From positions 1 to 38,180 of the IMG/VR virus record IMGVR_UViG_3300034170_000034: a stretch of 38,180 nt of DNA. One strand, 5' to 3'. Positions within the stretch are counted from its first letter, which is position 1, and every line of letters begins with the position of its first letter. The position numbers and the translations under genes are program-made. This stretch comes from a virus. Shown here piece by piece: positions 2,588 to 19,250 of this stretch. The notes under the pieces were generated by a model, which was not told the origin of the DNA, ran no database searches, and saw only the letters and a program-made list of their open reading frames with translations.

Positions 2588-3031
2588 TCAGATCTCCATC
2601 ATCAAAAGCGGGCCGATGTTGCGCAGACCCTGAGACTCGTAAAGCCGGGTGGTTCCTTCGACGCTCACTCCGGTACCAATGCCCATGTAGATTTGTTTCG
2701 CCCCTTTGAGCTTTGCCCATTCCTTGAATGCTTGGATCAGGCGCAGGGCGATCACGCCATTGCGCTTGGAGGGCTCGACGAACAGCGAATAGTCGTAGGC
2801 GATCAGGTCATTGCTGAACCACTGATCCGTCACAGCGCCCGCCATGCCGCCAACCACCTCACCGCGAACCTCAGCAACGAACACAACGCCATGCCCATTG
2901 ATCAGCTCATGCAGGAAGACGGCCGACTTGTCCGGGCAAAAGCTCATGGTTGAATAGCTGGTGGTGGCGTGTAGCAGCGTTCCCAGCTCGATCAGCCGGG
3001 GAACGTCGGAGTGCTTGGCGGGCCTGATCAT
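2588..3031 (-). CDS. GNAT-family N-acetyltransferase, 147 aa
   Basis: GNAT-like layout: MIRPAKHSDVPRLIEL start, FVAEVRGEVVGG strand, and LFVEPSKRNGVIALRLIQ in the acetyl-CoA-site region. A GAGG SD lies 6 nt upstream. Confidence 0.7.
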   Translation of the reverse strand: MIRPAKHSDVPRLIELGTLLHATTSYSTMSFCPDKSAVFLHELINGHGVVFVAEVRGEVVGGMAGAVTDQWFSNDLIAYDYSLFVEPSKRNGVIALRLIQAFKEWAKLKGAKQIYMGIGTGVSVEGTTRLYESQGLRNIGPLLMMEI

Positions 3032-3040
3032 GGGGATACC

Positions 3041-5203
3041 TCAGTCATTGATCGTTATTTTCTTGATGACGTTGAGCAGGTGGAACGGCAGCGGCTGGTC
3101 CTGCATGATTTCGAGCGAGGCCTCGCCGCGATCCCATCCCAGATTCTCTATGCGCTTGACGCCTATGAATGACTCAGGGGGCTGGTCGAGGACGCCCTCG
3201 CCGAGATTGCGGAAGCTGATTGTCTGAGCCATGCCCTTGCCCTTCACCTTGCAGCCAATGGTGTCAAGGAATCGAAGCGTCACTTCACCGATGCGCATGC
3301 TGTTGCCCTGGGAGCTACCAGTGTTGCCAGAGGCCTCAGGGGTCAGCGTCTTGATCCTGGTCTTGAAGTTCAGACCAATCGATGTGGCGAACGCCGTGCG
3401 CGGGATGGTTACCTGCCCACCGGTAACGAGCTGCTGCTGCATCACAACGCCGTCCGCAACGATGTCGACCATCTTCCCCTCAAGGTGCGCCAGGCCGCCC
3501 CAGACCGTAGCACCGTCAACACTGGTGGCGTTTACCCCGGAGTCGACGCGCACGCCACTGGTGAAGCGCTCGATGTAGCGAACGTTGACGCCACCGATTT
3601 TGCGGCGAACCACGGTCCACACCTGATCGCCTGTGCCGGTAGGGATGGCGGCGACCGACTCATAGCCCCCGTCCGTGGTCTGCCGTGCCCAGCCGATTAC
3701 GTCTTGGTCGCGGTCCACGGTCATGGTGGCTATGACGCCATCAGCGCGAACCATGAACAGGATCGACTCAGGCTCTTGCTGATAGGCCATGTCGATGACG
3801 CCGGACTTGGTCGCATGCTCAGACAGCACGGACATATCAGGCGAGCCGAATGTGTCGGAGTCGTACTTGTAGGCCATGGCGCGCAGCTTGCGGCCGGCGC
3901 GCTGGACGAAATACAGCTCGTTGCCGATACGCACCGGGCGCACGCGGTTGCAGCCGTACACCGATGGGTTCTTGGCACGGACGTTGGTCGGGGTGATTGC
4001 CTTTTCGACACCGCCACTCACGGTGAACTCGCCGCCATAGGTCAGCGGGATCAGGGCATTGATCTGCCCGATGTGTAGGATTGGGTTGATCTGGTCAGAC
4101 GACAGGTTGTACGAGATTGCATCATCATCCTTGGTGCCCAGTTCGAAGTTCAGGTACTCCCCGGTACGCGACTCCCAGATGGTCTGCGGGAAGTTCGGCG
4201 ATCCGCCCAGGGCCAGGCGCTGTTCGTACAGTGTGCCAGCGCCAGGGTAGCCGTCGATGTCGTTCCACACTGAGGCCTCAAGCGACCAGGCGTTGGCCGG
4301 CGATGCAACTGCAGATGTCGGGGCCGAACGAATGATCCCAGAAACCACTGTAGTGCTCGTGTAGGTAGCGATCTCTAAGAGCCCGCTGTTGATCTTGACG
4401 AACTTACCTACATCACTAGCGCGCCAGCCAGCAGCCCCCAGCGTCATGCTAACCGATGCCCCGACCGGGGTTGCTGCGCTCAGGGTGTTGGTGGTCTGCG
4501 GCGATCCCTTCAAGGACCAAGTAGGCCGGGTGATTGCGCTGAATGCGTTGGTCACCTCAACGGTGGCCACGGTGGCGCTGGTCACGGCGGTGATCTTGGC
4601 AACGCCACCGCCCGACCAGATCTCACGCCCAACGTCGGCAGCCAGGAACGCAGATTCAGCAGCGGTAACGGTACGCCCGGCGCCCACCGCCGGGTTGTCG
4701 ATGGTGAACGTGGTCAAGAAGTCGATGCCCTTCTCGTCGAAAGGCTTGGTCACGAACGGGGCCGGTGCCAGGCTCCATTCGGTATTGGTGATACGGCGCA
4801 GGCGGTAGACGGGCACCGTGTTGCAGAAGATGAACATGGTGTCGGCACCCTGGACGTAATCCAGGCGATCGAGGATCGTATGCGCGTAAGGGCTGACCAG
4901 TTCAATACCGCTGTAGGTGCCGTCGGCGAAGTGGATGCGCACGTACAGGTCGCCCATCTCAACCATGTACGCCTGGGCGGCGTTGAACACATACGGGACA
5001 AGCCGGCAGTTATTATCCGGGTACTTGGCGGGCGAGCACAGCAGCGTGCCGTCACGGCGAACAGCTCCACCGTGGATCACAGGCCAAGCGTTCTCGATGA
5101 TCTCGGCGCCGTTCTGGTATCGAGCGATGTCGACACGGCCCAGCATGCGCGGGGAAACCTCACCGGCCGTGAAGTTGGTTTGATTCAGCGTCAGGCGGGG
5201 CAT
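3041..5203 (-). CDS. Tail tubular protein B (T7 gp12-like), 720 aa
   Basis: Its size and position directly after the gp11-like gene fit gp12. The N-terminus MPRLTLNQTNFTAGEVSPRMLGR resembles podovirus nozzle proteins as I remember them. Confidence 0.7.
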   Translation of the reverse strand: MPRLTLNQTNFTAGEVSPRMLGRVDIARYQNGAEIIENAWPVIHGGAVRRDGTLLCSPAKYPDNNCRLVPYVFNAAQAYMVEMGDLYVRIHFADGTYSGIELVSPYAHTILDRLDYVQGADTMFIFCNTVPVYRLRRITNTEWSLAPAPFVTKPFDEKGIDFLTTFTIDNPAVGAGRTVTAAESAFLAADVGREIWSGGGVAKITAVTSATVATVEVTNAFSAITRPTWSLKGSPQTTNTLSAATPVGASVSMTLGAAGWRASDVGKFVKINSGLLEIATYTSTTVVSGIIRSAPTSAVASPANAWSLEASVWNDIDGYPGAGTLYEQRLALGGSPNFPQTIWESRTGEYLNFELGTKDDDAISYNLSSDQINPILHIGQINALIPLTYGGEFTVSGGVEKAITPTNVRAKNPSVYGCNRVRPVRIGNELYFVQRAGRKLRAMAYKYDSDTFGSPDMSVLSEHATKSGVIDMAYQQEPESILFMVRADGVIATMTVDRDQDVIGWARQTTDGGYESVAAIPTGTGDQVWTVVRRKIGGVNVRYIERFTSGVRVDSGVNATSVDGATVWGGLAHLEGKMVDIVADGVVMQQQLVTGGQVTIPRTAFATSIGLNFKTRIKTLTPEASGNTGSSQGNSMRIGEVTLRFLDTIGCKVKGKGMAQTISFRNLGEGVLDQPPESFIGVKRIENLGWDRGEASLEIMQDQPLPFHLLNVIKKITIND

Positions 5204-14682: not shown

Positions 14683-15392
14683 GTCCGTTGCTCCGTGGGT
14701 TTCTTGCCGAACTTTGCCATCAGCAACGCGCGGGCTGACTGCCCATCAGTCGGGATGCCTTGCTGGATGATTCGTTCTTGGGTTTTTTGGTCTGCCAGTT
14801 CGTTGGCCAATTCGAAGGCGGTCTTCTGGCTGTCGTGGCCGATGCCGGTCAGGATCTTGCCGTCGAGCGGCTGGCCTTCCTGGGCGCGGCGGATCACGAT
14901 CGCGTAGTTGTGATCGAAGCGCTGGCGCAACCCCTTGTCTTCCTGCTTGGCGCTGCGCAAGTCGAAGATCCCGGTCTCGTTGGCAGCGATGCGCACACCG
15001 TCGTGGCTGTAGACGCCCATCAGGGCTTCCATCCAGGCTGCTGGAGCATTTGGCATGCCGAAGTCTTCAGGGCTTGGCACGCACATGGCGATGAATTCAC
15101 CAACGCTTGGCGCAAATGGCTTCTTGAGCTTGCGGCACTTCTGGATACCGAACTCGATCTGCTCCAGGGTGCGGATGCCGACGTCGGCAAATTCCTTGAT
15201 CCATTCGGCCTTGGCGGAGTCGAGCGCTTCGGTGGATGGCCAGGCCTGGCGCCATGCTGGGAAGATCCCACGCAGCCGGCGGAACAGGTCGTTTACCACC
15301 TCGGCGGTTTCGTGAGTGACGTGCACCGGCTCAGATTGAATCGCTGGCGGCAGGTTGCCGATGGTTGCGAGAAGCTGGCTGACCTGCTTCAT
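14679..15392 (-). CDS. P: Replication protein P homologue (helicase loader), 237 aa
   Basis: VNDLFRRLRGIFPAW...AEWIKEFADVGIRTLEQIEFGIQKCRKLKKPFAPSVGEFIAMC aligns by eye with lambda P INGVFSQLLATFPAS...RRQWVLAFRENGITTMEQV...RPFLPSPGQFVAWC. Confidence 0.8.
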   Translation of the reverse strand: MKQVSQLLATIGNLPPAIQSEPVHVTHETAEVVNDLFRRLRGIFPAWRQAWPSTEALDSAKAEWIKEFADVGIRTLEQIEFGIQKCRKLKKPFAPSVGEFIAMCVPSPEDFGMPNAPAAWMEALMGVYSHDGVRIAANETGIFDLRSAKQEDKGLRQRFDHNYAIVIRRAQEGQPLDGKILTGIGHDSQKTAFELANELADQKTQERIIQQGIPTDGQSARALLMAKFGKKPTEQRT

Positions 15393-16093
15393 GGGCGCAC
15401 CATCAGGTTATTTGCCCAGTCGGTGCTGTCGAAGTCCGGCTCGTTGCGGTTTGGCAGGCGGTGGACGTTGCTGGTGGTCTTGTCCGGGAAGATCCCGGTC
15501 CAGCCGTTGGAAATTGAGTTGACCAGCACCTGGTCCGGGGTGGCGTGCCCTTCCAGCGCCTTGGCCTGCTGCTCGCAGCTCTTGGCGGTCAGTGGCTTGT
15601 GGATCTCACGGCGGTGTTGGCACCAATCGGCCCAGACTTGGGCGGACACGTTGGCTGGCTTGGCAGTGAGCGGATCGAACTTGCATGGCTTCGGCTTCAC
15701 CGGTGCGGGAGCGGGAGCGACATGCTTTTGATCTTGTTCTGTATCTGTATCTGTATCTGGGGGCGTTACTGTAACGTTACATGACTGTTTCTTCTTTGCA
15801 CGATGGGCTGCAACCCGCGCCCTGCTTGAGTCGGATACGAATTGGCGACGGTCCCAAGAGGTAGGCATGCAGTCCTCATCAATGAGGCCTTTGCTCAAGA
15901 AAAGCGCCTTTGTGGTGGCCCACTCTTCGTTACTGATACGCAGCTGAAACGCTATCTCCGTTTCATGTAACGTTACACCGTCGTTACTGCAACGAAGGCA
16001 GAGCAGCATGACGAAGCGGCGCTGATCAGCCTCGCTCATCATCTGGACTTTCGGGTCAGTGGCGAACTCGCCATACATCCGGAACCAATCCAC
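15389..16093 (-). CDS. Replication initiator-like protein (DUF1376/YdaU-type N-terminus, O-position), 234 aa
   Basis: MDWFRMYGEFATDPKV start. Lies upstream of P and overlaps it. Confidence 0.6.
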   Translation of the reverse strand: MDWFRMYGEFATDPKVQMMSEADQRRFVMLLCLRCSNDGVTLHETEIAFQLRISNEEWATTKALFLSKGLIDEDCMPTSWDRRQFVSDSSRARVAAHRAKKKQSCNVTVTPPDTDTDTEQDQKHVAPAPAPVKPKPCKFDPLTAKPANVSAQVWADWCQHRREIHKPLTAKSCEQQAKALEGHATPDQVLVNSISNGWTGIFPDKTTSNVHRLPNRNEPDFDSTDWANNLMVRP

Positions 16094-16406: not shown

Positions 16407-16598
16407 TCAGGCCGCCGACTTGGAGGCCCGATCAGCCTGTTGGTGCAGGCTCTCGATTGCCTTGCCGAGCTGGTAGCTGACCATTGCGCCATTGGCTGCA
16501 CGCGAGATAGTTGGCTGTGTGGTACCGCACTTTTCAGCAACCGCTGTCTGCGACAGACCGAGCTTGAATAGTCGATTCAACATCTCTTGAATTGTCAT
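16407..16598 (-). CDS. cro: Cro-like HTH repressor, 63 aa
   Basis: Trimmed to the ATG at 16598. HTH reads LSQTAVAEKCGTTQPTISRAANG. Divergent from cI. Confidence 0.7.
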   Translation of the reverse strand: MTIQEMLNRLFKLGLSQTAVAEKCGTTQPTISRAANGAMVSYQLGKAIESLHQQADRASKSAA

Positions 16599-16629
16599 GT
16601 TGGGAATCCTATGAGGTTTTGCATAACAA

Positions 16630-16658
16630 ATCATACGAATCTGCATGGCGCAATGCAA
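16630..16658 (-). promoter_or_regulatory. PR-like promoter for the cro operon
   Basis: Minus strand TTGCAT, a 17-nt spacer, then TATGAT. The operator overlaps the -10. Confidence 0.6.
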
Positions 16659-16682
16659 TAGAATTCTCATAATGCATTTACG

Positions 16683-16688
16683 TATACT
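16683..16688 (+). promoter_or_regulatory. PRM-like -10 (TATACT) giving a near-leaderless cI mRNA
   Basis: TATACT ends 9 nt before the cI ATG. There is no usable SD and only a poor -35. Confidence 0.4.
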
Positions 16689-16697
16689 GGTGGACTG

Positions 16698-17354
16698 ATG
16701 GATACCGCTGAGCGCTTGCGCGCAAAAATGATCGAACTGGGCTTGAATGAGAGCCAACTCGGCAGACGGTCCGGCGTTCCCCAGCCGACGATAAACCGGA
16801 TACTTTCCGGTGAAAGTTCAAGCCCCAGAAGACCTACGGTCGAGAAGATCGCCAGGGCGTTACGGGTTTCGCCCGACTGGCTTATGTTCGGCACTGGAGA
16901 AGATAAGTTCGACGCCAACGTAGAGCTGGCTACAGGGCCAACGCGGTACTATGAGTACCCGGAGATAAGCTGGGTACAGGCAGGGGTGGCAGCAGAGGCA
17001 ATGGATCTGTTCAATGTCGGAGATTTTGAGGCGACGCACCCGTCTGATGCATGGGCGGGGCCGAATGGCTTTTGGTTGAAAGTGAAAGGACCTTCAATGA
17101 CTTCGGTCAACGGTATGAGTTTCAGCGAAGGAATGCTGATCCTAGTAGCACCTGGAGGTGACGTTGAAAATGGCCAGTACGTTGTGGCAAAACTGATCGA
17201 TACAAATGAGGCAACATTCAAGCAATTCATTTGGGATTCGGGCAAAGCCTACCTAAAGCCACTCAACCCAGCGTTTTCAACGGTTGAGGTGAACGAGACA
17301 TGGTTGGTGGTTGGGCGTGTGGTTGATGCCAAATGGCCTAGATCGGCGCTGTAG
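16698..17354 (+). CDS. cI: CI-like repressor (XRE HTH plus S24 LexA-type autopeptidase), 218 aa
   Basis: HTH ESQLGRRSGVPQPTINRILSG. The C-terminal domain has GPSM (Ser) and VVAKL (Lys). Confidence 0.9.
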   Translation: MDTAERLRAKMIELGLNESQLGRRSGVPQPTINRILSGESSSPRRPTVEKIARALRVSPDWLMFGTGEDKFDANVELATGPTRYYEYPEISWVQAGVAAEAMDLFNVGDFEATHPSDAWAGPNGFWLKVKGPSMTSVNGMSFSEGMLILVAPGGDVENGQYVVAKLIDTNEATFKQFIWDSGKAYLKPLNPAFSTVEVNETWLVVGRVVDAKWPRSAL

Positions 17355-17900: not shown

Positions 17901-17926
17901 AAACCCGCCGCTGGTGGGTTTTTTTA
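17901..17926 (+). terminator. Rho-independent terminator ending the cI-moron unit
   Basis: AAACCCGC-cgctg-GTGGGTTT followed by TTTTT. Confidence 0.7.
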
Positions 17927-17943
17927 CGTCCTTTGAAAATATT

Positions 17944-17982
17944 ATGCAAATTCGTATTGACGGCTGTTATGAGGATTCGTAT
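17944..17982. promoter_or_regulatory. OL-like operators (17944..17957 and 17969..17982)
   Basis: ATGCAAATTCGTAT and ATGAGGATTCGTAT belong to the same family as the OR sites. They cover the -35 and -10 of the promoter below. Confidence 0.6.
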
Positions 17983-17985
17983 AGT
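17957..17985 (+). promoter_or_regulatory. PL-like early promoter for the plus-strand operon
   Basis: TTGACG, a 17-nt spacer, then TATAGT. Confidence 0.7.
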
Positions 17986-18201
17986 TCATCCATCGCAGCG
18001 ACAAACAGCCACTGCGAAGGCAGCGATGAACCGGCCTCAACGGTTCAGAGGGTTGGCAACTGACCCGGGTGTGCAGCGTAAAGCACCAGAAGCAGTTATC
18101 CGGCGGACAGGGTTCGCGGTCGGAGTTAAGGAAATACCCACAGATTTCCTCGATGCGCTTTGAAACAGGCGCATCCGGAAAATCAACCGTGGAGATACAC
18201 C

Positions 18202-18294
18202 ATGCCAAGACTTACCTGGGCCTCCTGGCTCTTTGTGATCGTGCTTGTAGGCGTGTTCCTAGCCTGCTGCTGGGGCATTGCACAGAGCGCTTGA
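18202..18294 (+). CDS. 30-aa hydrophobic peptide (below the ORF-track cutoff)
   Basis: GGAG SD with a 7-nt spacer. Translates as MPRLTWASWLFVIVLVGVFLACCWGIAQSA. Confidence 0.5.
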   Translation: MPRLTWASWLFVIVLVGVFLACCWGIAQSA

Positions 18295-18351
18295 ACGAAC
18301 AACCAGCGCCACGACAGCCTGTCGTTAACTGCCCGATCCTCTCTATGAGAG

Positions 18352-18489
18352 CGCATCGGGGTGTGATTTGGAGTTTGCCTCGGCGGATCAGGGGCGCCCT
18401 GCGTGCGGGGTGGTGTCGACTAGGTAGCGCTGCCGAAATCGACGTAATTCTTTTGGGTTCGAATCCCTACCAAATCACACCCCGATGCG
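18352..18489 (+). ncRNA. Structured element A: 20-bp perfect closing stem around about 98 nt with three internal hairpins, one T-arm-like
   Basis: cgcatcggggtgtgatttgg (18352-18371) pairs with ccaaatcacaccccgatgcg (18470-18489). Internal hairpins are CAGGG-gcg-CCCTG, GTCGA...TCGAC, and GGG-TTCGAAT-CCC (18455-18467). The strand is assumed from operon direction. Confidence 0.5.
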
Positions 18490-18676
18490 GATGACCACTA
18501 CACACCGCGCAAAGCGGCCTCCTGCATCACACCTCTGACGAACCACCCCGGCCTGACGCCAGTAGCGTGACCGGGTACAGATGGCTCCCTGCTGATTCAG
18601 GTAGCCATCTGGCTTCACAAATGCCTCTAGACCCCCTGGAGGTATTTGGAAGCCCTATCCCATCCGGAGTAACACC

Positions 18677-18874
18677 ATGAACGCCAAGAAATGCAAAACC
18701 ATCCGCCAGCTGCTGAAATCAGAAGGCGTTGATGTGAAAGAAACCGCCTACGTCGGTACTTCGGCCCGCGATAAGTTCGGCCGCGATCGGATCAGAAATC
18801 TCGATGTTGCGCCATGCCAGCTCAAGTCTTGCGGCCGCCTCGCATACAAGCAGGCCAAACGCGCTGCGCCCTAA
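18677..18874 (+). CDS. Basic hypothetical protein, 65 aa
   Basis: GGAG SD with a 7-nt spacer. Lies between the two structured elements. Confidence 0.6.
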   Translation: MNAKKCKTIRQLLKSEGVDVKETAYVGTSARDKFGRDRIRNLDVAPCQLKSCGRLAYKQAKRAAP

Positions 18875-18946
18875 CCCTCTCCTTGCACGTCAGCCAGACG
18901 AAAATTGGCCCGATCCTTTCCTTGGGGAGACTCGTATAGGGAGAGG

Positions 18947-19067
18947 CTGTATCGGAGTGTGATCTGAGGCTAAGCCTCGAGCAGCGGATGTGCCAACCGG
19001 TCGCCTATAGGGCCACCCCTTCCGCCCAATGCCGGTTGAGCCCCGGACAGATCACACCCCGATGCAG
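18947..19067 (+). ncRNA. Structured element B, paralogue of A
   Basis: ctgtatcggagtgtgatctg (18947-18966) pairs with cagatcacaccccgatgcag (19048-19067), 18/20. It shares with A the arm sequences, the internal GCCTCG..GCGGAT, and an upstream GCCCGATCCT box (18908-18917 versus 18331-18340). Confidence 0.5.
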
Positions 19068-19086: not shown

Positions 19087-19140
19087 AAAGGCTCTATTCC
19101 GGGCCTTTTAAGCAAAATTACCCCGATTAAGGGGTATTTG
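19087..19140 (+). terminator. Two weak hairpin-plus-T candidates after element B
   Basis: AAAGGC-N10-GCCTTT followed by TA, and TACCCC-gattaa-GGGGTA followed by TTTG. Confidence 0.3.
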
Positions 19141-19250
19141 ACCGCCAACCTCCCCGCCTCTACCCGTCAGCACTCACCCCGCGCCCATCGGCAACCAGCG
19201 GGAGGCATGAGTGTTGACGAATACAGGTGAACCAACAATCGGAGTTGACC

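Follow-up and report, generated by a model that had tools for sequence, protein, structure and literature searches.

The window analysed here is the whole of the viral record IMGVR_UViG_3300034170_000034 (38,180 nt), and its subject is a pair of structured elements, A and B, located in a lambdoid immunity region. In this region a PL-like sigma-70 promoter lies downstream of a cI-like repressor gene and of a terminator, and points into ∼1.25 kb that hold just two small open reading frames (ORFs) of 30 and 65 amino acids. A first-pass annotation had placed both elements downstream of this promoter in nearly non-coding surroundings, and both statements stand: the promoter was found (TTGACG-17-TATAGT), and no plus-strand terminator was called by the scanner between it and B. 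The promoter would transcribe both A and B, and is treated here as context rather than as part of the elements. Both A and B represent one conserved RNA scaffold with a long stem. It recurs among many Pseudomonas prophages, in their early operon, and encloses an exchangeable interior, termed the cargo. The position occupied by A is referred to as site 1 and that of B as site 2 (Table 1).

Table 1. Features of the two elements, their flanks and the surrounding immunity region (window coordinates).
Feature	Position	Strand	Remarks
Element A	18352-18489	+	Two 20-nt arms enclosing 98 nt
5' arm of the A closing stem	18352-18371	+	Outer 8 nt, CGCAUCGG, conserved; inner 12 nt variable
3' arm of the A closing stem	18470-18489	+	100% complementary to the 5' arm over 20 nt
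A cargo, type 2, 98 nt	18372-18469	+	Multi-branched; T-loop sequence GGGUUCGAAUCCC abuts the 3' arm
T-arm sequence GGGTTCGAATCCC in A	18455-18467	+	Read from the sequence
Hairpin 1, site 1, CGACA-GCC-UGUCG	18312-18324	+	Predicted fold and covariation
Box GCCCGAUCC, site 1	18331-18339	+	Complementary to AUCGGG of the outer 5' arm
Hairpin 2, site 1, CUCUC-UAU-GAGAG	18339-18351	+	Covaries between site variants
3' flank of site 1	18490-18528	+	Hairpin CCGC-GCAAA-GCGG (18505-18517), then CUGCAUC (18522-18528)
Element B	18947-19067	+	Two 20-nt arms, 90% complementary
5' arm of the B closing stem, site-2 form CUGUAUCGG...	18947-18966	+	Repeat search and 21-locus comparison
3' arm of the B closing stem	19048-19067	+	Repeat search
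B cargo, type 1, 81 nt	18967-19047	+	Cloverleaf-like four-way layout
5' flank of site 2	18888-18946	+	75-nt flank in 21 loci; predicted fold
Hairpin 1', CGUC-AGCCA-GACG	18888-18900	+	Part of the site-2 flank
Box GCCCGAUCC, site 2	18908-18916	+	Part of the site-2 flank
Hairpin 2', CCUUUCC...GGAGAGG, 17-nt loop	18915-18946	+	Part of the site-2 flank
HTH-containing ORF, cro-like by eye	16407-16757	-	Upstream of the cII-like gene, same strand
cII-like gene		-	Immunity region
cI-like HTH/S24 repressor gene	16698-17354	+	Family scans
166-aa gene, then terminator	terminator 17901-17921		Immunity region
PL-like sigma-70 promoter TTGACG-17-TATAGT	17957-17985	+	Downstream of the cI-like gene and the 17901-17921 terminator
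Two weak hairpin-plus-T structures after B	19087-19109, 19120-19141	+	Read by eye; scanner made no plus-strand call

The two elements are the strongest short-range inverted repeats of the window. When all inverted repeats with arms of 15 nt or more and no farther apart than 400 nt were collected throughout its length, 20-nt arms with at least 90% complementarity were detected in A and B only. Folding z-scores against shuffled sequences were -5.4 for A and -5.1 for B, and none of 200 shuffles folded as well. The two elements are real and nonrandom, and the proposal that they are related is borne out. As had been described, the closing stem of A is perfect over 20 bp, and that of B is paired at 18 of its 20 positions and includes one G-U; it comprises 18 Watson-Crick pairs, the G-U pair and, at the remaining position, an A-C mismatch. 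The reported sequence GCCTCG..GCGGAT near the 5' side is indeed common to A and B, and the same GCCCGATCC box stands upstream of each (at 18331 and 18908). The spacing from A to B is 577 nt both for the boxes and for the 3' arms. Within the cargos, the T-loop sequence noticed in A is present, its T stem consisting of just GGG/CCC and one U-A pair past a U-U mismatch, and the terminal hairpin of the B cargo (CCGG-UUGAGCC-CCGG) abuts the 3' arm. The hairpin CAGGG-gcg-CCCUG proposed for A was unsupported: CCCUG pairs downstream with CGGGG, and in a variant CCC/GGG is replaced by CUC/GAG.

The modules of the scaffold follow one another in the order hairpin 1, CCCGAU box, hairpin 2, closing stem of 19-24 bp, cargo, and 3' flank ending in CUGCAUC. 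At site 1, AACUG stands between hairpin 1 and CCCGAU, and the last part consists of a small variable hairpin followed by CCUGCAUCA. Among 98 unique elements, the closing stem provided 1862 pair cells, of which 1782 (95.7%) were Watson-Crick, 36 were G-U, 16 were A-C and 28 were other combinations. The inner stem occurred in 32 variants, with each of pairs 9-19 represented by two to four Watson-Crick pair types; the inner 11 or more bp are fully covarying, while the outer 8 bp are constant as CGCAUCGG/CCGAUGCG. In mismatch-free elements the contiguous helix was nearly always 19-24 bp long. Similarly, the stem of hairpin 1 covaries around a constant loop (CGACA/UGUCG, CGUCA/UGACG, AGCCA/UGGCU, CGUGA/UCACG), and the stems of hairpin 2 across the site variants read CUCUC/GAGAG, CCUGG/CCAGG, CCUC/GAGG, CUCCAU/AUGGAG and CCUUUCC/GGAGAGG. 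Covariation among homologues, which the first-pass annotation had set as a test, was therefore found in the closing stem and in hairpins 1 and 2.

Conservation extends to the box and the 3' flank. The box is kept as CCCGA(U) in all of the site variants, GAUGCGG at the 3' arm's outer end has its complement in CUGCAUC, and CCTGCATCA in the 3' flank is kept in most loci, although the hairpin that it encloses differs. Once the arms are separated in silico, helices between the box and the 5' arm and between the 3' arm and CUGCAUC are the predicted folds. The former stacks on hairpin 2, and the latter was predicted in three flank variants, in which it encloses the variable 3' hairpin. The genes upstream of the module are variable, and its first position coincides with their stop codon.

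B is a member of a distinct set of 21 site-2 loci. The stems of this set read CUG(C/U)AUCGG/CCGAUGCAG, and at least 12 of the 21 have the A-C mismatch at GGAGUG/CACCCC. Since other site-2 stems often share this mismatch, B is a normal site-2 copy, and its imperfect stem does not indicate decay. The interior of B, previously described as having diverged from that of A, is instead a different cargo placed in the second site. At least 10 cargo types were found at site 2, including the cargo of A (locus L171), that of Aurca01 (L176) and an 82-nt type; because the same cargos occur at both positions, sites 1 and 2 draw on one cargo pool. A site 1 was detected within 1.3 kb upstream in four of the 21 loci, the window included.

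The 65-aa ORF (18677-18874), which precedes site 2, encodes a basic protein. Its stop codon and the next 75 nt are conserved in all 21 loci, which indicates that the 65-aa gene and site 2 travel together. The protein had seven related clusters among 5.8 billion, all of them unnamed, and represents a rare hypothetical protein without a family.

The repertoire of cargos proved to be extensive. Clustering of 148 elements (125 unique) yielded at least 29 types without detectable similarity between types, the cut-off that defines a type being arbitrary. In these 29 types the total element length ranged from 82 to 213 nt and the cargo from 44 to 175 nt, and a wider search provided 140 unique elements of 73-306 nt. 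The smallest cargo, in the 73-nt element, was ∼35 nt long, and in none of the 140 unique elements was the cargo replaced by a short loop. Type 1, to which the cargo of B belongs, was the commonest (33 elements, nearly all at site 1), and type 2, that of A, included 18 elements. Identity within a type was 90-100%, from which it follows that the types differ by replacement and not by drift. The same cargo is found at both sites and in the company of different variants of hairpin 1 and the 3' flank. All of the cargos are strongly structured, many of them end with a hairpin that abuts the 3' arm, and they share no motif. In type 1, the cargo helices were 98.3% paired and the variation was nearly all to G-U (71 G-U cells versus 11 unpaired). 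In the A-type variants the T arm was missed by RNAalifold; this arm is nearly invariant, and hence uninformative.

Features resembling parts of tRNA were observed in ∼5 of the 29 types, the other 24 having none. Canonical T loops, abutting the 3' arm, occur in type 2 (that of A) and in types 11, 18 and 20, and canonical D arms in types 18 and 20. Overall, the T-arm motif was detected in 16 of the 140 unique elements, and tRNA mimicry is thus a property of some cargos and not of the family. The cargo of one locus (L116, 11392-11584, 192 nt) contains a tRNA-like unit that is nearly complete and is reported by ARAGORN as tRNA-???; its D and T arms have the canonical form, and its anticodon loop is aberrant. 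The cargos of type 5 (L048, L049, L051, L076 and others) carry a hairpin resembling an anticodon arm, with the 7-nt loop CUCGUAA (CUUGUAA in site 2 of L180). The stem of this hairpin is compensated (CCUGA/UCAGG versus CUCCA/UGGGG) and its loop is kept. CGU and UGU are both threonine anticodons.

The distribution of the scaffold is that of a prophage feature. An exact 24-mer of the 5' flank of A was found in more than 120 IMG/VR contigs, with one match in each; the scans matched exact words, this and the other contig and locus counts are minimum values, and the contigs may be partly redundant. When 185,579 species genomes were scanned with a 21-mer, 39 places matched; every one was in a Pseudomonas genome of the fluorescens lineage, and a genome had 1-4 of them. 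One or two copies are present per prophage, with none elsewhere in the host genomes, and in at least 39 loci a cI gene lies ∼1.8 kb upstream on the same strand. The single match per contig and the 39 places among the species genomes mark the scaffold as a low-copy prophage feature rather than a dispersed repeat. In Orimi01, element A is almost unchanged and directly follows a related leader. PseuP_224 carries the 5' flank of A and a perfect stem, but the interior of B, while Aurca01 has the same 5' flank and outer stem together with a different interior and a wholly different, fully compensated inner stem. An identical A cargo is present in the Orimi01/Orisa phages; outside these stems, the cargos of A and B were not found in GenBank phages. 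None of the matching GenBank phage records annotates any feature under the elements. A second scaffold copy in Aurca01 (L003, ∼2950-3120) contains the start of a 48-aa cysteine-rich ORF, which runs out through the 3' arm; this ORF is truncated in the related L159 copy and is probably not a conserved gene.

Several lines of evidence concern the nucleic acid and the strand on which the element acts. None of the 148 elements contains an inverted cargo, and no type matches the reverse complement of another. This fixed orientation argues against inversion and against a function that is blind to orientation. D and T arms take their canonical form on the plus strand only, and G-U exceeds A-C in the closing stem (36 versus 16). 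The G-U pairs of type 1 likewise favour a plus-strand RNA, since the same cells would be A-C on the minus strand. Together, these features point to an element that acts as RNA, on the plus strand transcribed by PL.

A coding role was rejected: no ORF is conserved across the elements, which likewise points to RNA, and from the ATG found in the hairpin-2 loop most frames run for only 6-8 codons before a stop. Clustering of the ORFs in 114 loci revealed no conserved neighbouring protein within 3.5 kb, and since no phage protein travels with the element, the scaffold is probably read by a host factor. Three further readings of the scaffold were discarded. A promoter in the 5' flank has the wrong hexamer spacing, and the scanner finds PL only. 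The boxA-like letters of a boxA/boxB reading of the same flank sit inside the covarying stem of hairpin 1. As for an Rsm/CsrA sponge, the GGA of GCGGAUG is paired in the consensus fold of type 1, and GGA is absent from the other types.

The elements were compared with known families and systems. Searches with Rfam 15, at gathering and at permissive E-values, of the window and of 17 cargo types produced chance-level matches, none of them on the elements, in accordance with the earlier statement that no RNA family could be assigned. No similarity to CRISPR repeats, as in Racr-type mimics, appeared in the Rfam search of the cargos, the library presumably including CRISPR repeat families. No tRNA was detected in the window by ARAGORN, and the Rfam tRNA model (RF00005) had no match at E up to 10; a tRNA gene was consequently rejected, A holding a T-loop sequence only. 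No description of the scaffold was found in the literature searched by words and by arm sequences. YrlA, a Y-RNA-like RNA of bacteria and phages, is characterized by a GNCGAA(N0-1)G motif near the 5' end and by a neighbouring Ro60 (TROVE) gene (Chen et al. 2014, PMC4201824). The YrlA combination of a long stem formed by the ends with a D/T-arm module that lacks an anticodon arm is seen in types 18 and 20 and, in part, in A. Unlike YrlA, most cargo types are not tRNA-like, and the 5' arm (CGCAUCGGGGUGUGAU...) is without the GNCGAA motif to which Ro would bind. No Ro60 gene was present among the neighbours (ORF clustering of 114 loci over 3.5 kb, and Pfam scans of the window neighbours), nor did the Rfam YrlA model match A, B or the 17 cargo types even at permissive E-values. 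VIPR vrRNAs contain 9-16 tandem YNNGG repeats and a conserved tail (bioRxiv 10.64898/2026.04.26.720920); the cargos show no pentanucleotide periodicity, and this candidate was rejected.

At the DNA level, the elements recall integron attC sites in that the outer pairing is conserved and the inner pairing less so, the central part is of very different lengths, and the whole follows a gene. In contrast to attC, they have no R/L box consensus, integrase or extrahelical bases, and the flanks outside the palindrome are conserved. The perfectly paired arms CGCATCGG/CCGATGCG, the lack of a GTTRRRY core and the lack of a conserved recombinase nearby led to the rejection of attC. Miniature transposons of the MITE or REPIN kind were set aside on the basis of the single match per viral contig and the 39 places in the species genomes, and an invertible segment because every member of each cargo type has the same orientation. 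As for a retron msr-msd, no conserved large ORF lies within 3.5 kb, and the Pfam and PHROGs annotations of the window neighbours contain no reverse transcriptase.

Additional features were observed around the elements. The interval between PL and the scaffold is an accessory-gene hot spot, as judged from the gene that ends at the start of the 5' flank, which varies by phage (a 177-aa HNH-like protein, and unrelated proteins of 267 and 180 aa). In the window, the interval contains a strongly hydrophobic 30-aa ORF, MPRLTWASWLFVIVLVGVFLACCWGIAQSA (18202-18294), for which no family match was obtained and whose appearance is that of a type I toxin or a small peptide of the membrane. Its Shine-Dalgarno context, GGAGATACACCATG, closely resembles that of the 65-aa ORF (GGAGTAACACCATG). 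The direct repeats TTATGCAAATTCGTAT (17942-17957) and TTATGAGGATTCGTAT (17967-17982), which straddle the PL promoter, are likely operators, and a sequence similar to them, GACTCGTATAG, lies at 18929-18939 in the loop of hairpin 2' of site 2. Just 3' of the promoter, the leader at 17990-18130 is kept in PseuP_224, Orimi01, DVM-2008 and one faecal phage contig. Its hairpin GAACCG-GCCUCAA-CGGUUC (∼18028-18046) becomes GAAUCA-GCCUGAA-UGAUUC in Orimi01, with two compensatory pairs, and the leader is a better candidate than A or B for a nut/put-type site. Between A and the 65-aa ORF stands a strong hairpin, CAGAUGGCUCCCUG / CAGGUAGCCAUCUG (18578-18611), built, like the scaffold arms and other stems of the region, on a GAUG/CAUC core. 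The pair of hairpin-plus-T structures noted after B is present by eye; the two are weak, and may mark the end of the immediate-early segment, a strong terminator being found in PseuP_224 at the matching position. Farther away, a perfect 15-nt inverted repeat, TGTAACGTTACATGA / TCATGTAACGTTACA (15770-15784 and 15963-15977, 178 nt apart), lies inside a 234-aa minus-strand ORF (15389-16093) at the position of a replication gene, and may be related to an origin.

Two observations concern sequences that accompany the scaffold in other phages. In six loci (L182, L185, L190, L199, L202 and L204), the 3' flank GACGAAACUGCGGCC... was found without the scaffold stem, and (A/G)UGAGUGGGC-NNNN-GGAUGCG stands just upstream instead; these loci may represent an empty site or an alternative module. 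In 34 loci, GAUGAAU followed by a hairpin (GCCCG-GGCUGA-CGGGC, GCGCA-GGCUGA-UGCGC or GCCAA-GACUGA-UUGGC) is located 3' of the scaffold, at 0 or +48 nt past the 3' arm in L023, L047, L051 and others. A hairpin of this type is also the first hairpin of several cargos, and a second hairpin, CCGG-RGAUCAGCN-CCGG, was found both within and outside cargos. With its covarying stems and kept loop, the GAUGAAU-hairpin motif is boxB-like, and is a better candidate than the scaffold for a nut/put site.

The nearest relatives of the elements in kind are the RNase III hairpins of phages and tRNA-like stable RNAs. RNase III cuts helices of ∼20 bp and needs no specific sequence. Its sites in the lambda PL operon include the N leader, cIII and sib, the early mRNAs of T7 (R0.3-R1.3) keep cut hairpins as stabilising 3' ends, and RNase III stems flank pre-16S and pre-23S rRNA. 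The elements resemble these hairpins and rRNA stems in having a helix of about two turns that flanks a structured RNA or lies between cistrons, and they share with the lambda and T7 hairpins a position on a strong early polycistronic transcript and ends that can stay in hairpins after cutting. At 19-24 bp, 95.7% Watson-Crick and covarying, the closing stem corresponds to the near-perfect helix of at least ∼20 bp expected of an RNase III stalk. In contrast to the known hairpins, the scaffold surrounds a hypervariable RNA that can be exchanged, sequence conservation is seen in the outer 8 bp and in their flanking partners, and cleavage is here a prediction.

By analogy with these systems, we tentatively favour, with somewhat less than even confidence, a scaffold that carries a releasable, trans-acting cargo on the PL transcript, its stalk probably being cut by RNase III. 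The two-turn helix of ∼20 bp would serve as a stalk for processing by a double-strand-specific enzyme, most likely the host RNase III. Cutting would free the cargo as a compact, stable RNA on a short stem, and would split the PL transcript. The stub of the 5' arm could then pair with the upstream box and stack on hairpin 2, providing the upstream RNA with a 3'-terminal hairpin, and the stub of the 3' arm could pair with the downstream CUGCAUC to form a 5'-terminal hairpin on the downstream RNA. On the 3' side such capping would not apply to B, which lacks CUGCAUC and is followed by the weak terminator-like hairpins. The proposal that each outer arm has two partners would account for an inner stem that is free to vary beside a fixed box, a fixed CUGCAUC and fixed outer 8 bp. 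An equally possible purpose of the helix between box and arm is to assist folding during transcription, the 5' arm being kept occupied until its 3' partner has been made. The functional part would be the cargo, a payload that acts in trans at an early stage of infection, most plausibly as a protein-binding decoy or mimic. This last suggestion derives from the tRNA-like arms of A and a few other types, and a decoy or anti-defence role remains speculative.

A number of points weigh against this proposal. A and B fold about equally well on either strand, and the recurrent A-C mismatch of site 2 becomes a G-U pair on the minus strand. Covariation inside the cargo types is modest, each type being shallow. 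The CUGCAUC partner is absent from B and from many other site-2 copies. The apparent conservation of the 5' flank is inflated, the loci having been collected with an exact word from that flank; a second collection, made from the 3' flank, again had CGCATCGG as the 5' arm in 80 of 94 stems, and the main form of hairpin 2 remained the most frequent. Moreover, the conserved outer 8 bp and box may have a reader that, in contrast to RNase III, is sequence-specific, in some types a T arm lies beside the 3' strand and would fit RNase P rather than RNase III, and the stems could be kept partly as linkers for recombination.

Among the rival explanations, the main one, which we consider unlikely, is a purely cis-acting element for processing or stability of the PL-operon messages, as in the lambda N leader, the cargo being functionless filler introduced by recombination. 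The scaffold alone is conserved, the cargos having no motif in common; the module begins precisely at the stop codons of variable genes, and the latent end-capping helices involve the flanks and not the cargo, all of which is to be expected of such an element. A mere filler, however, is hard to reconcile with a lower limit of ∼35 nt and the absence of short-loop forms among the 140 unique elements, with cargos so strongly structured that their helices are kept through G-U changes, with the presence, in several independent types, of a hairpin stacked on the 3' arm or of arms resembling those of tRNA, and with a CUCGUAA loop that is kept while the stem of its anticodon-arm-like hairpin covaries. 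Quite improbable, in our estimate, are tRNA mimics processed by RNase P, perhaps CCA-ended and similar to YrlA or the stable tRNA-like RNAs of T4, in which the long stem would be an extended acceptor and no RNase III site. RNase P measures a 12-bp acceptor/T stack, and an acceptor extension of 20 bp far exceeds it. T-loop sequences do abut the 3' arm in A and types 11, 18 and 20, with canonical D arms in the last two and a tRNA-like ARAGORN call in L116; however, the T-arm motif is confined to the 16 elements mentioned above, the Rfam tRNA and YrlA models remained blank at permissive E-values, and both the GNCGAA motif and a Ro60 neighbour are missing. The general idea of the first-pass annotation, structured and possibly processed RNAs on the early-left transcript, survives, while the four specific roles that it offered fare worse: a tRNA-mimic role for the elements at large conflicts with the ∼5 of 29 types that have tRNA-like parts, and its Y-RNA-like variant with the absence of the defining motif and neighbour.

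Another of these roles was that of a processive antiterminator comparable to HK022 putL/putR, which would modify RNA polymerase in cis to allow read-through of the terminators after B and which we regard as very unlikely. The put RNA of HK022 is a conserved two-stem structure of ∼70 nt, found in both early operons, and its function depends on this structure. Like put, the scaffold is a cis RNA element early in the PL transcript, with conserved flanks, and in the window and PseuP_224 it occupies an immediate-early position upstream of terminator-like hairpins. Unlike put, its interior is hypervariable and both window copies are in the PL operon, none being found in the rightward (PR) operon of the window; moreover, only seven of the 148 elements have a T-run within 200 nt downstream, and the 17990-18130 leader and the GAUGAAU-hairpin motif are better nut/put candidates. 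An immunity or antisense RNA of the P1 c4 / P4 CI kind, in which the variable cargo would set heteroimmune specificity through base pairing to matching sites in transcripts of its own phage, has very little probability. P1 c4 and P4 CI are small RNAs cut from an operon leader, whose allelic variation sets specificity, and the location in an immunity-region operon, the cloverleaf-like layout and the many cargo alleles among related phages are all reminiscent of them. In contrast to c4 and CI alleles, which are point variants of one RNA, the cargos show no relationship in sequence or size, and they lack complementary targets: in searches for exact matches of at least 10 nt, complementarity of the cargos to their own 2-2.5 kb flanks equalled that of a cross-type control, and the cargos of A and B had no complementary run above shuffle expectation in the whole 38-kb window on either strand. 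Equally remote is an element of DNA, whether a recombination site or cassette boundary like attC, a miniature transposon bounded by terminal inverted repeats, or a segment able to invert. The perfect inverted-repeat arms, the sharp boundaries of exchange at the stems, the same cargo at two sites and the threefold occurrence of CCCGAT/ATCGGG would suit such an element, but the arm-mediated inversion or deletion that had been envisaged is opposed by the 0 of 148 inverted cargos. Furthermore, a prophage has only one or two copies and the rest of the host genome has none, a GTTRRRY core is lacking, hairpins 1 and 2 covary though outside any repeat, and the G-U-specific maintenance of helices and the orientation of the tRNA-like parts indicate RNA.

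The combination of scaffold and exchangeable cargo looks like an undescribed slot for non-coding RNAs; it does not look like a transposon, a tRNA gene or any RNA family already known. It resembles the acr-aca loci of Mu-like Pseudomonas phages, and the RNA anti-CRISPRs, in its fixed position, conserved borders, many unrelated alleles among phages that are alike in other respects, and early expression (here inferred). Unlike the acr-aca loci, the payload is a structured RNA inside an RNA scaffold instead of protein genes. A broader and rather doubtful extension is that the slot forms the RNA counterpart of an accessory or anti-defence hot spot. The cargos, of at least 29 types, would then be decoys or inhibitors of host defence, of RNA-targeting proteins or of rival phages, their diversity would be maintained by frequency-dependent selection, and they would be shuffled between the two sites by recombination in the shared stems. 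The possible mimicry of tRNA arms by several cargos (T arm, D arm and Thr-type anticodon loop) belongs to the same doubtful extension.

Even on the more ordinary interpretation, the scaffold would be a conserved processing element that is built of several helices and lies in the PL operon throughout a large prophage group. If the proposed release of the cargos is correct, temperate Pseudomonas phages would hold, on their first transcript, a dedicated slot for exchangeable non-coding RNAs, from which any structured RNA could be expressed and excised, and the scaffold might represent a natural design for freeing structured RNAs from a longer transcript. The catalogue of at least 29 cargo types, some of them tRNA-like, would provide candidate RNA decoys against tRNA-targeting and other defence systems, and an RNA layer, invisible to protein-based annotation, would be added to the accessory and counter-defence pool of these phages.

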